This document shows positions 3,001-6,000 of a stretch of 64,000 nucleotides of DNA, piece after piece. Position numbers: made by a program. Origin of the DNA: Escherichia coli O127:H6 str. E2348/69 (GTDB lineage: Bacteria > Pseudomonadota > Gammaproteobacteria > Enterobacterales > Enterobacteriaceae); the NCBI RefSeq assembly GCF_000026545.1, contig NC_011601.1. The stretch is one strand, 5' to 3'. Position 1 is the stretch's first letter, and each line of letters starts with the position of its first letter.

Positions 3001-6000
3001 CAACATATTAACGGCATAATATTGACTTTTTGAATAACTTTGGGGAAACTTGACACCAATAATGGGCGTTTTTTACATGTCATTGATGAGTCTCAATAAC
3101 CTGCCGCCGAGTAGTTTTTATGCTCTGAATTGTATTTGTGTAGTAAACATGCTGACTGCAATGTAATAGAGTTTTTTTAGCCTGTAACCTCTTGACGGCA
3201 TTGAATTGCTTTTGTTATGAGTTGTAAGCCAATGTTATCATCTTGTATTGGGGTGGTTATGAAGGATGGTGCACTGCTCAGGAGTTCTTCACTTTTTATT
3301 GCCTACATGGGATGCCTTGGATGGGGGAGTGCTTATTTCTATGGATGGGGTACTTCTTTTTACTACGGCTTCCCATGGTGGATTGTAGGTGCAGGTGTTG
3401 ATGATGTTGCCAGAAGTTTATTTTTTGCAGTTATCGTCATTGCTATATTTCTTATCGGTTGGGGTATTGGTGTTGTATTCTTTTTCGCAGTGAAAAGAAA
3501 ACATTCTATGCAAGAGCTAAATGTATTTCGCCTTTATTTTGCTGTGGAATTATTGTTTGTGCCGGCAATTATTGAGTTTTCTATATTGAGACAGAAGATT
3601 CAGGTACCTCTTTTGCTACTGTCAGCAGCGATTGCGCTGGCGGTTACAATTTCGATAAGATCTTATGGGCGATTTTTATCGGTATCATGCTTCTATGATA
3701 AGCCATTTATAAAAAAACATTTTTTTGAGATTGTGATGATTGCTTTTGTGGCATATTTCTGGCTTTTTTCATTTCTGACAGGATATTACAAACCGCAGTT
3801 TAAGAAAGAATATGAAATGATTAATTATAATGATGGTTGGTATTATGTTCTTGCTCGTTATGATAATTGTCTGGTTTTGTCTACTTCTTTCAATGCAGGT
3901 AGTAAAAGGTTTGTCATTTATCAATCAGCACAAGATAAGAATCTTCAGGTTGATATTGTAAGGACCAGAATTTAATTGGCTGCATAAATAATATTTTAAG
4001 TTGCAAGTTGGCTATTCGTAGGAATAGAACCTTAGGCATGCTGAATGCGTTTTCTGAACATTGTTTTATAAACTGTGTCTGCTTGCTGTTGTGATCCTGC
4101 TTTTAGTGATGGTGATGATGGATTTCACCAGCAGGATAATGTTGGTACTGACTGATGGCGCTCTGGTCTGCGGCATTGTGGTATTGCTGTGGCCGATGAT
4201 GAAAAAACAGAATGAATAATCCTTGACTTTTTTGTTTACTGTTTATTAAAAAATCAACCGCATGGTGAATCCTCCTTGGAGGGGCTAAATGATCGAGTTT
4301 TAAGGGCACGTAGCGAGTTCTGTTTGATCATTGCAGAACTTAGCGGGAGGCGCCATGCGTACATCACTAATGTTATTTCCTTCTATCATTTTCCTTGTGA
4401 GTTCTGGCTGCGCATGGCGCGGCCTTTTTTTTATGACCTGCCACTGGCAGATGGTCATCCTGTGATTTGATTCCGGTTCCGGCTTTTTAACTCTGTTCCT
4501 GTACACGGGAGAAATTCTATGTCGATTAATCGTTATGATATTGGTTACAAGAAGTACCACGTATTGTGTTGAGATAGAAAGCATGGTGCCAGAGGTAAAT
4601 GCAGCAGCATAATAAAAAAGAGCCAGCGCAGAAGAGAACGGGTAAAAGAGTCTGCGCTGGCGTGGGGATATTCCCCGTGGAGAAATGATATGTAACACAC
4701 ATCGGGAACCTTTCTATATAAACATTATCATTATTGTCAATCATAACAGTCAGGTATTATGACGTTTATGCATCAGGGCCATCAGGAATTAACTGGTGGC
4801 TTTTTATTGTTGTCAGCTTCCGGATAACGGGAGACGGGGTATGTACCAGATGGAAAAAATAACAACAGGTGTGTCATACACCACGTCAGCGGTGGGGACG
4901 GGATACTGGCTACTGCAGTTGCTGGACAAAGTCTCCCCATCCCAGTGGGTGGCAATAGGCGTATTGGGTAGCCTGGTGTTTGGCTTGCTGACGTATCTGA
5001 CAAACCTTTATTTCAAGATTAAAGAAGATAAGCGTAAGGCTGCGAGAGGTGAATAATGTCGCCATCATTACGCAAGGCTGTTGCTGCTGCTATTGGTGGT
5101 GGGGCTGTTGCCATAGCGTCTGTGCTCATCACTGGTCCGAGTGGTGACGATGGCCAGGAAGGTGTCAGCTACATACCATACGAAGATATCGTTGGCGTAT
5201 GGACTGTATGTCACGGACACACCGGAAAAGACATCATTCCCGGTAAAACGTATACCGAAGCAGAATGCAAAGCCCTCCTGAATAAAGACCTTGCCATGGT
5301 CGCCAGACAAATTAACCCGTACATCAAAGTCGATATACCGGAAACAACGCGCGGCGCTCTTTACTCGTTCGTTTACAACGTGGGCGCTGGTAATTTCAGA
5401 ACATCGACGCTTCTTCGCAAAATAAACCAGGGTGATATCAAAGGCGCATGTGACCAGCTACGTCGCTGGACATACGCTGGCGGTAAGCAATGGAAAGGGC
5501 TGATGACCCGTCGTGATATTGAGCGTGAAGTCTGTTTGTGGGGGCAGCAATGAGCAGGGTAACCGCGATTATCTCCGCTCTGGTTATTTGCATCATCCTC
5601 TGCCTGTCATGGGCTGTTAATCATTACCGTGATAACGCCATCGCCTACAAAGAGCAGCGTGATAAAAAAGTCAGTGAGCTGAAGCAGGCGACCGCCACCA
5701 TTACTGACATGCAGCAACGCCAGCGTGCTGCTGATGTACTCGATGCTAAATACACGAAGGAGTTAGCCAATGCGAAAGCTGAAAATGATGCTCTTCGGCG
5801 TAAGCTTGATAATGGTGGTCGGGTGCTCGTCAAAGGAAAATGCCCTGTGCCAGCCTCAGCCAAAACCTCCAGCTCCTCCGGCATGGGCAATGATGCCACC
5901 GTCGAACTCTCTTCAGTTGCTGGACGAAACGTTCTCGGTATCCGGGACGGAATTATCCGTGACCAAACAGCACTGAGAACGCTTCAGGAGTACATCAGGA

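Follow-up and report, generated by a model that had tools for sequence, protein, structure and literature searches.

The window (the whole stretch of 64,000 nucleotides that was analysed) represents Escherichia coli O127:H6 E2348/69, prophage PP4, and its coordinates equal genome coordinates minus 1,056,000; positions 1058001–1062000 of E2348/69 (comparison sequence LT827011) are identical to window 2001–6000. Prophage Sp3 of the O157:H7 strain Sakai is 100% identical to window 4226–4900 (by alignment, offset 896,966). Within this segment lie the plus-strand sRNA PasD1 (EcOnc13), the remnant of a sialate O-acetylesterase gene and, starting at 4841, a holin gene. Of the esterase gene the remnant retains 25 nt at the start and ~70 nt at the end, including the stop codon TAA (4610–4612), about 1.75 kb between them having been deleted. 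The terminator of a minus-strand sRNA adjoins this stop codon, with a hairpin that starts at 4622 (Table 1). The interval from the esterase 3' end to the holin gene, read in the antisense direction, is the slot occupied by sRNAs of the PasA/PasC type, as judged by comparison with phage 434, Sp4 and Sp12. The element does not vary in sequence among 563 complete E. coli genomes, and a search of a phage collection with the sRNA sequence as query gave a match in phage Evi only.

Table 1. Features of the interval between the esterase remnant and the holin gene (window coordinates).
Feature	Position	Strand	Basis
Sialate O-acetylesterase gene remnant (nanS-p / SASA family)	4520..4612	+	Alignment to the intact phage 434 gene
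U-tract UCUUUUUUAU after the terminator stem	4612..4621	-	Sequence; in vivo RNA 3' end lies inside
Terminator hairpin SL3	4622..4661	-	Inverted-repeat search and fold
Middle hairpin SL2 (GGGGA-AUA-UCCCC)	4664..4676	-	Fold; aligns with stem 2 of the Rfam Esr41 model
Target-pairing (seed) region ACAUAUCAUUUCUCCAC	4677..4692	-	CLASH chimeras and predicted duplexes
5' hairpin SL1 (GAUGUGU-GUU-ACAUAUC)	4687..4703	-	Fold; aligns with stem 1 of the Esr41 model
Candidate promoter P1	4713..4740	-	-35 TTGACA (4740-4735), 16-nt spacer, -10 TATAGA (4718-4713)
Candidate promoter P2	4724..4753	-	Promoter scan; -35 CTGACT (4753-4748), 18-nt spacer, -10 GATAAT (4729-4724)
ORF E2348C_1013 / ECs_0817 / WP_012578864.1, 132 aa	4698 to 4300	-	RefSeq

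The inverted repeat had been described in the original prediction as a 10-bp stem with a 20-nt loop. The repeat is real but its size was slightly misjudged, one closing A-T pair having been missed: its arms, GCCAGCGCAGA (4622–4632) and TCTGCGCTGGC (4651–4661), are 11 nt long, 100% complementary and 18 nt apart. The resulting hairpin (SL3) has a perfect 11-bp stem with 8 G-C pairs and a C/U-rich loop, CUCUUUUACCCGUUCUCU, and folds by itself with -19.8 kcal/mol. The A-run noticed before the stem on the plus strand is present as AATAAAAAAG at 4611–4620 and reads on the minus strand as UCUUUUUUAU directly after the stem; this U-tract is expected to provide the site bound by the proximal face of Hfq. 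A G+C-rich stem followed by a U-run on the transcribed strand is the arrangement of an intrinsic terminator. The loops of intrinsic terminators are typically 3–8 nt, whereas that of SL3 has 18 nt, and a simple terminator scan did not pick up the hairpin because its loop limit was set at 8 nt. Long terminator loops (14–19 nt) also occur in the relatives of this element; with a loop so far beyond the usual length, the efficiency of termination is not assumable from sequence alone.

Taken by itself the repeat is only mildly improbable, since in Markov-1 simulations perfect 11-bp inverted repeats with loops of 3–30 nt arise by chance at 0.41 per 64 kb (28% of the simulations contain at least one) and the window holds about eight distinct repeats of this kind. 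RNA folding, which had been suggested as a check, agrees with the original prediction: the minus-strand 92-mer folds with -35.1 kcal/mol versus -15.3 +/- 2.7 for shuffled sequences (z = -7.4), and 0 of 200 shuffles equal it. The same prediction had offered a protein-binding site as the alternative, and a perfect 11-bp dyad is indeed what an operator for a dimeric DNA-binding protein would present. Support for this reading was not found: the half-sites are separated by 18 bp, their surroundings, with the U-run, are those of a terminator, related elements retain the pairing and not the sequence (GCCAGCG, GCCAGCAC, GCCGGCA) and a second copy is absent from the window, all of which makes an operator extremely improbable.

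The predicted fold of the RNA consists of three hairpins and a single-stranded anti-Shine-Dalgarno stretch. The second palindrome mentioned in the original prediction, GGGGA-TAT-TCCCC, had been placed at about 4666..4678; it exists, two bases further to the left, and corresponds to the middle hairpin of the same RNA (SL2), which alone contributes -6.4 kcal/mol. The linker AUUUCUCCAC (4686–4677) is unpaired in both the minimum free energy (MFE) and the centroid structures and, together with the 3' arm of SL1, makes up the seed region. The same three hairpins are predicted from the family alignment. Among the variants the outer six pairs of SL3 are invariant and one inner pair changes from C-G to U-A, the first pair of SL2 is retained as G-U, and a G-U pair of SL1 becomes A-U. 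Covariation analysis, the other check suggested, thus finds the hairpins kept but a single pair altered on both sides, and the support it lends is thin, since few variants are known and these are close to one another.

Two overlapping sigma-70-like promoter candidates, both conserved in the variants, precede the RNA. P1 would give an RNA of ~91 nt, and its TTGACA box and spacing also occur upstream of Esr41 and in all variants (in which the -10 box is TATAAA); its weak points are the last -10 position, which lacks the T, and a predicted size below that of the Northern band of ~112 nt. P2 would yield ~105 nt, closer to this band than P1, and its -10 box reads GATAAT, TATAAT or TATCAT across the three variant types, with A2 and T6 always retained. 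The promoter and 5' end of the RNA are thus inferred from these candidates.

The element has the same sequence and strand as the sRNA EcOnc32 of Sp3 and the same position, flanked by the EcOnc13/PasD sRNA on one side and the holin gene on the other; the Sakai and window copies show no sequence difference, the latter being the copy of the enteropathogenic E. coli (EPEC) prophage PP4. Table S2 of Tree 2014 gives EcOnc32 at positions 901574–901662 of the Sakai chromosome, minus strand, in prophage Sp3, so that the published Hfq peak falls at window 4608–4696 (offset 896,966). These coordinates refer to an older version of the genome and were checked by the agreement of CLASH-read sequences and by the position of the neighbouring EcOnc13/PasD1. 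In that work EcOnc32 is reported as crosslinked to Hfq, flagged for a Rho-independent terminator, detected as a Northern band of ~112 nt and present in 5 of 5 Hfq-CRAC data sets, with a peak area that ranks second among the Table S2 rows consulted (Tree 2014). A literature search on the name EcOnc32 gave no main-text match; the name occurs in supplementary tables only.

Published interactome reads place the 3' end of the RNA at window 4613–4614, in agreement with the minus-strand transcript ending near 4610 that had been predicted. CLASH reads from enterohaemorrhagic E. coli (EHEC) assigned to EcOnc32 carry the exact window sequence (ACATATCATTTCTCCACGGGGAAT corresponds to window 4692–4669, minus strand); one read, "...GCTGGCTCTTTTTT", which is fused to a different RNA, maps to Sakai 901579, and the chimera junction comes after "...GCUGGCUCUUUUUU". 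In RIL-seq data from EPEC, the fragments in the RNA2 position all end at NC_011601 1060613, that is, window 4613. The E2348/69 data file this RNA under the CDS name E2348C_1013, which has a baseMean of 2064 (versus 5 for the neighbouring holin), falls 7.5-fold in an hfq deletion (log2 fold change -2.9, padj 1e-23) and takes the second-RNA position in 100% of its own chimeras. The EPEC interactome study did not list it among new sRNAs; it was overlooked because its reads were assigned to a probably spurious CDS.

This CDS bears on the statement, also made in the original prediction, that no convincing minus-strand protein gene ends at the repeat. Formally a gene model does run through the hairpin, at 4300–4698, and if this 132-aa hypothetical protein were real, the inverted repeat might be merely coding sequence. 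The ORF was called by RefSeq and by the original annotations, but it has no NCBIfam match, is not annotated in diverged homologues and would require an mRNA that reads through a strong terminator. It also crosses the esterase deletion junction and overlaps the PasD1 sRNA in the antisense direction; in phages with an intact esterase gene such an ORF is impossible. The RIL-seq reads filed under its name are sRNA-like (always second RNA, Hfq-dependent and confined to window 4613–4672). The ORF is most likely spurious and a coding origin of the repeat is highly improbable; the RefSeq entry should become an ncRNA annotation.

A function of the hairpin chiefly on the plus strand, as a terminator or 3'-end stabiliser of the esterase/late transcript acting bidirectionally between convergent genes, is another possible reading: in intact phages (phage 434) the hairpin begins ~10 nt past the esterase stop codon, and the plus-strand RNA folds into the same stem. 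Yet the plus-strand stem is followed by GUGGGGAUAUUCC and not by a U-run, the hairpin is unchanged in the 563 genomes even though the esterase gene is deleted, and the mapped RNA ends and the Hfq signal are all on the minus strand. In lambdoid phages, moreover, Q-modified late transcription would read through a terminator anyway. As the main function this is quite unlikely; it could be a minor secondary role.

The locus thus very probably contains an sRNA gene on the minus strand, extending from about window 4613 to 4703–4719, in which the repeat, with its U-run, serves as the Rho-independent terminator and as the Hfq-binding 3' module of EcOnc32. This matches the original proposal of a minus-strand terminator for a small RNA that originates in the AT-rich stretch ahead of the holin gene. 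The element is already known (EcOnc32 was detected in 2014, although its function has been only partly studied) and is ordinary in kind. In the proposed mechanism, transcription would be initiated within the AT-rich spacer that precedes the holin gene, would proceed antisense to the late operon of the phage and would stop at the hairpin adjoining the stop codon of the largely deleted esterase gene; the unpaired linker between hairpins 1 and 2, with the adjacent ACAUAUC, would then pair on Hfq with the Shine-Dalgarno (SD) and start-codon regions of its targets.

The interactome data document physical contacts, not effects, between this RNA and several mRNAs. In RIL-seq the entC 5'UTR is the partner in 263 chimeras (p 4e-165) and the nlpD-rpoS intergenic region in 537, all of them ending at window 4613, and in CLASH chimeras ACATATCATTTCTCCACGGGGAAT is joined to entC and to ECs1655. 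The duplex predicted with the entC SD/AUG region has -22.7 kcal/mol (18 bp, one bulge, shuffle fraction 0.0005) and that with the ECs1655 read -21.7 kcal/mol, both beyond nearly all shuffled targets when the computation is restricted to the seed, whereas full-length RNAduplex runs gave long duplexes no better than shuffles. A predicted accessible seed complementary to the translation-initiation region of a target, as is usual for Hfq-dependent sRNAs, is therefore present for entC. This first gene of enterobactin synthesis is the best-supported target, and the expected outcome, by analogy with Esr41 on other iron genes, is translational repression; for rpoS, a regulatory outcome is likewise inferred.

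These partners (entC, the rpoS leader, dnaK and ECs1655) are all trans-encoded, which argues against a chiefly cis-acting RNA that, as an antisense to the late transcript (esterase 3' end and holin leader), would modulate lysis or esterase expression. The late genes of PP4/Sp3, in addition, show practically no expression in the data (holin baseMean 5). What speaks for a cis action is the full complementarity to a late transcript that must cross the region, the chimeras that the related PasA forms with esterase mRNA 3' ends, and the conserved, unexplained "dyad" placement of such sRNAs in the stretch from the late promoter to the lysis genes. A chiefly cis-acting RNA is unlikely, although an additional role of this type may exist alongside action in trans.

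A more far-reaching reading makes EcOnc32 a paralogue of Esr41 that is carried by a prophage and has a distinct function: it would block the ribosome-binding site of entC, thereby repressing enterobactin biosynthesis, and would also engage the rpoS leader. This is put forward tentatively, as a serious possibility that falls somewhat short of even chances. If true, a cryptic lambdoid prophage (Sp3/PP4) would rewire the iron and stress control of its host, and the conserved C/U-rich terminator loop of 18 nt would offer the RNA another surface for interactions. As a discovery the element is minor: the RNA has been on record since 2014, and its class, the Hfq-binding sRNAs of lambdoid prophage late regions, is well described. 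EcOnc32 is nevertheless among the most strongly Hfq-bound accessory-genome RNAs in EHEC and EPEC. Moreover, entC emerges as a partner from two independent interactome data sets; this would extend the theme set by Esr41, that of horizontally acquired sRNAs tuning iron uptake.

Among known RNAs, EcOnc32 is a diverged relative of Esr41 (EcOnc14, RF02676; SpLE1, O-island 43/48). In a permissive Rfam scan Esr41 was the only sRNA family matching strand and interval (E = 0.0011), with a weak 32.3 bits against a gathering score of 102; the scan of the whole window at gathering thresholds gave no match at the site. The cmscan alignment spans positions 1–74 of the Esr41 model, and a gapped alignment finds 58 of 74 Esr41 positions identical (the 2014 coordinates of Esr41 are shifted in NC_002695.2 and the gene was located by motif search). 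Both RNAs have three hairpins with an unpaired anti-SD stretch, UUUCUCCA, between the first two, an architecture on which the MFE and family consensus folds agree, and share a middle hairpin of the GGGG..CCCC type, a terminator of the pattern GCC(A/G)GC...GCUGGC followed by a U-run, and an upstream TTGACA box; both are Hfq-associated and contact iron-related mRNAs. They differ in the terminator loop (18 nt in EcOnc32, ~7 in Esr41), in the sequence of SL1 and in genomic site (lambdoid late region versus SpLE1), and blastn with Esr41 fails to reach the EcOnc32 element. Pairing with entC and ECs1655 is predicted to be much stronger for EcOnc32 (-22.7 and -21.7 kcal/mol) than for Esr41 (-14.6 and -12.1 kcal/mol), suggesting that their target sets probably differ.

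PasA and PasC (Pearl Mizrahi 2021; Zhu, Shabalina, Storz 2026; EHEC homologues EcOnc51/52) occupy the same slot in the same orientation and, like EcOnc32, are Hfq-dependent and have an upstream TTGACA box and an (A)GCCAGC...GCUGGC(U) terminator with a U-run adjoining the esterase stop codon. The bodies of these RNAs are unrelated to that of EcOnc32: gapped body alignments were not meaningful, and the terminator and esterase flank alone align. Likewise, distant blastn matches outside the EcOnc32 type cover only positions 6–67 of the query, which are the esterase 3' end. The seed proposed for PasA lies in the terminator stem, whereas the contacts of EcOnc32 are at SL1 and the linker. HnrS (EcOnc10-12), which was also checked, is a different sRNA. 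Finally, the locus resembles the "dyads" AsxR/EcOnc27 and AgvB/EcOnc06, pairs of Hfq-binding sRNAs on opposite strands in the late promoter or moron to lysis gene interval; Sp3 is named among such convergent cases (Tree 2014), and in the window the pair is formed by PasD1/EcOnc13 (+) and EcOnc32 (-). AsxR and AgvB are sponges of other sRNAs with a length of 51–60 nt, whereas EcOnc32 exceeds this length and has 5' regions of mRNAs as its recorded partners.

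The inverted repeat with an A-run on the plus strand at 4609-4700 belongs to the already published small RNA EcOnc32, an Hfq-bound transcript of the minus strand known from prophage Sp3 of E. coli O157:H7 Sakai. Positions 4226-4900 are 100% identical to Sp3 (offset 896,966), where Table S2 of Tree et al. (2014, PMC4104026) places EcOnc32 at chromosome 901574-901662 on the minus strand, marked with a Rho-independent terminator, recovered in 5/5 Hfq-crosslinking data sets and with a peak area that is the second largest among the table rows covered; its Northern band is ~112 nt (Tree et al., 2014). 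These coordinates convert to 4608-4696, essentially the interval of the original prediction. A match independent of coordinates comes from the RNase E-CLASH chimeras assigned to EcOnc32, which carry 'ACATATCATTTCTCCACGGGGAAT' and '...TTCTGCGCTGGCTCTTTTTT' (Waters et al., 2017, PMC5286369, Table EV7), both being minus-strand sequence of the window; in the TTCTGCGCTGGCTCTTTTTT read the junction with another RNA comes immediately behind the six U's, which sets the RNA 3' end at 4613-4614. The preferred reading of the repeat as a minus-strand terminator marking a small RNA was thus right.

From 4610 to 4680 the plus-strand sequence is TAA-TAAAAAAGA-GCCAGCGCAGA-(18 nt)-TCTGCGCTGGC-GT-GGGGATATTCCCC, and on the minus strand UCUUUUUUAU lies directly 3' of the terminator stem, as had been observed. 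The stem and loop, originally given as 10 bp and 20 nt, are 11 bp and 18 nt in an inverted-repeat search (perfect arms 4622-4632 and 4651-4661), and the second small palindrome is present, at 4664-4676 rather than about 4666..4678. Interpretation of the 11-bp repeat as an operator finds no support. A plus-strand terminator is unlikely, as that side of the hairpin has no U-run, the hairpin is kept although the esterase gene upstream is lost, and every mapped RNA end is on the minus strand. Taken alone, the 11-bp repeat would not be decisive evidence; chance would give 0.41 such perfect repeats per 64 kb, against ~8 in the window, so they are enriched here. The consensus terminator scan accepts loops of 8 nt at most and for that reason did not pick up the 4622-4661 hairpin. 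The 92-nt minus-strand RNA from 4703 to 4612 is predicted to form three hairpins (SL1, SL2 and the terminator); its folding energy of -35.1 kcal/mol corresponds to z = -7.4 relative to dinucleotide-shuffled sequences.

Features of the EcOnc32 locus in prophage PP4 (window positions)
Feature	Position	Strand	Remarks
Antiterminator Q	2323-2979		first in the plus-strand order
PasD1 sRNA	4260-4432	plus	Rfam STnc100-like; match 4230-4435 sub-threshold (37.7 bits, gathering score 47)
Esterase remnant (nanS-p / SASA family)	4520-4612	plus	comparison with phage 434
U-tract	4621-4612	minus	predicted fold
Terminator hairpin	4661-4622	minus	predicted fold
SL2	4676-4664	minus	predicted fold
Unpaired AUUUCUCCAC	4686-4677	minus	predicted fold
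SL1	4703-4687	minus	predicted fold
Candidate promoter P1		minus	-35 TTGACA, spacer 16 nt, -10 TATAGA; predicted RNA ~91 nt
Candidate promoter P2		minus	-35 CTGACT, spacer 18 nt, -10 GATAAT; predicted RNA ~105 nt
Class II holin gene	4841-5056		3' of AT-rich spacer; SAR endolysin and spanin genes next

The region belongs to the late region of the lambdoid prophage PP4, in the plus-strand order Q, membrane ORF, DUF3927 ORF, PasD1, esterase remnant, inverted repeat, AT-rich spacer, holin, SAR endolysin and spanins. Positions 2001-6000 are identical to E. coli O127:H6 E2348/69 1058001-1062000, so that window coordinates equal genome coordinates minus 1,056,000. The sialate O-acetylesterase gene, intact in phage 434 (1851 bp), has lost ~1.75 kb here and is left with 25 nt from its start and ~70 nt from its end, out of frame; its stop codon TAA survives at 4610-4612 and the hairpin starts 10 nt beyond. 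PasD1, a plus-strand sRNA convergent with EcOnc32, has its own intrinsic terminator (4406-4424, then a T-run) and contains the published PasD probe sequence (4395-4418). Its EHEC homologue is EcOnc13 (901332-901382, plus, ~187 nt), which maps to 4366-4416, within PasD1, in agreement with the published homology. A further terminator-like plus-strand hairpin (4775-4812; AGGGCCATCAGG...CTGGTGGCTTT, then TTATTGTTGT) precedes the holin start by ~30 nt; a terminator is annotated at the corresponding position of phage 434, and the hairpin could serve as a late-operon attenuator or mark where another small transcript ends.

Other repeats and elements occur elsewhere in the window. A perfect 11-bp inverted repeat at 32764-32799 (ATTAGCGCAAG-(14 nt)-CTTGCGCTAAT, with TTGACAAAAA just before), which resembles the lambda sib / tI region beside attP, lies at the right end of the prophage according to the Sakai Sp3 annotation. 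The same hairpin, AAAAACCGGAG-tccgg-CTCCGGTTTTT, occurs at 28304-28330 and 29180-29206, ~875 bp apart, flanked by A and T runs that give it the look of a bidirectional terminator. Rfam naRNA4 (REP/BIME-type repeats) has three tandem minus-strand matches at 39167-39447 (75-81 bits, above the gathering score, spacing 101 bp), and Ysr251 ('Yersinia sRNA 251', antisense type) a strong full-length one at 62613-62806 (minus, 188.7 bits, E 3e-51). The IS4-family element ISEc13 (42536-44085) is inserted between agp and yccJ, with ends CTGTCTCTTATACACA and CTGTCTCTTGATCAGA resembling the IS50/Tn5 outside and inside ends and a transposase ORF at 42701-44074 (457 aa; NF033590, 514 bits).

Of 5426 complete E. 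coli genomes, 563 carry the exact EcOnc32 sequence together with the identical esterase deletion, O157, O26, O103, O111 and E2348/69 among them, and so does phage Evi. In IMG/VR, 67 viral contigs were recovered by a motif scan, and their 12 distinct contexts are of three types. When these three types and Esr41, a known sRNA family (Rfam RF02676), are compared, SL2 and the outer pairs of the terminator either do not vary or become G-U, one terminator pair is altered on both sides (C-G to U-A) and one SL1 pair changes from G-U to A-U, which is consistent with the predicted structure and weak as statistical proof. Upstream lie two overlapping sigma-70-like candidate promoters. P1 is homologous to the Esr41 upstream region and its -10 box lacks the last-position T; the RNA predicted from P2 is nearer in size to the Northern band, and its -10 box reads GATAAT, TATAAT or TATCAT across the three types, the critical A and T being kept while other positions vary. 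We lean, tentatively, towards P2.

The element also overlaps an annotated 132-aa minus-strand ORF (E2348C_1013 / ECs_0817, 4300-4698; WP_012578864.1, RefSeq hypothetical protein), of which it could be read as a part. This ORF is probably an annotation artefact: it has no NCBIfam match, crosses the esterase deletion junction, is antisense to PasD1, overlaps both sRNAs and cannot exist in phages with an intact esterase, and its 'expression' behaves like that of an sRNA. Because it is annotated over EcOnc32, the RIL-seq study of E2348/69 assigned the EcOnc32 reads to this CDS, and EcOnc32 is absent from its list of new sRNAs (Pearl Mizrahi et al., 2021, PMC8550237). In these data E2348C_1013 RNA has a baseMean of 2064 vs 5 for the adjoining holin gene, falls in an hfq deletion (log2 fold change -2.9, padj 1e-23) and is the second RNA in 100% of its chimeras, which join it to the entC 5'UTR (263, p 4e-165), the nlpD-rpoS intergenic region (537), an IE2 intergenic region (72) and the dnaK 5'UTR (28); all its fragments end at 1060613, that is 4613 (PMC8550237).

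In chimeric reads the target contact of EcOnc32 falls in ACAUAUCAUUUCUCCAC. Duplex predictions restricted to this seed were compared with shuffled targets and with the Esr41 seed. The entC Shine-Dalgarno and start codon are predicted to pair at -22.7 kcal/mol (18 bp, one bulge; fraction of equally good shuffled targets 0.0005; Esr41 seed -14.6 kcal/mol), and the ECs1655 read at -21.7 kcal/mol (14 contiguous bp; 0/2000 shuffled targets equally good; Esr41 seed -12.1 kcal/mol). Given the seed contact and the strong predicted duplexes, EcOnc32 most likely acts as a classical Hfq-dependent repressor; contact with targets is documented in the literature, and repression is suggested by analogy to the action of Esr41 on chuA, cirA and bfr. 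EcOnc32 may in addition act in cis, as an antisense RNA to the late transcript.

The Rfam model of Esr41 aligns end to end with EcOnc32, and the two share the hairpin layout and the upstream TTGACA box, but the score (32.3 bits, E 1e-3) falls far short of the gathering score of 102 and blastn from Esr41 does not reach the element; EcOnc32 is thus regarded as a diverged relative outside that family. The Esr41-model matches described as frequent beside PasD (Zhu, Shabalina and Storz 2026 preprint) very probably correspond to EcOnc32. In phage 434 and in Sakai Sp4 and Sp12 the equivalent place holds one or two comparable modules (TTGACA box, ~80 nt, (A)GCCAGC-long loop-GCUGGC(U), U-run), which lie antisense to the late operon, and EcOnc32 belongs to a known class, the convergent Hfq-binding sRNAs of lambdoid late regions.
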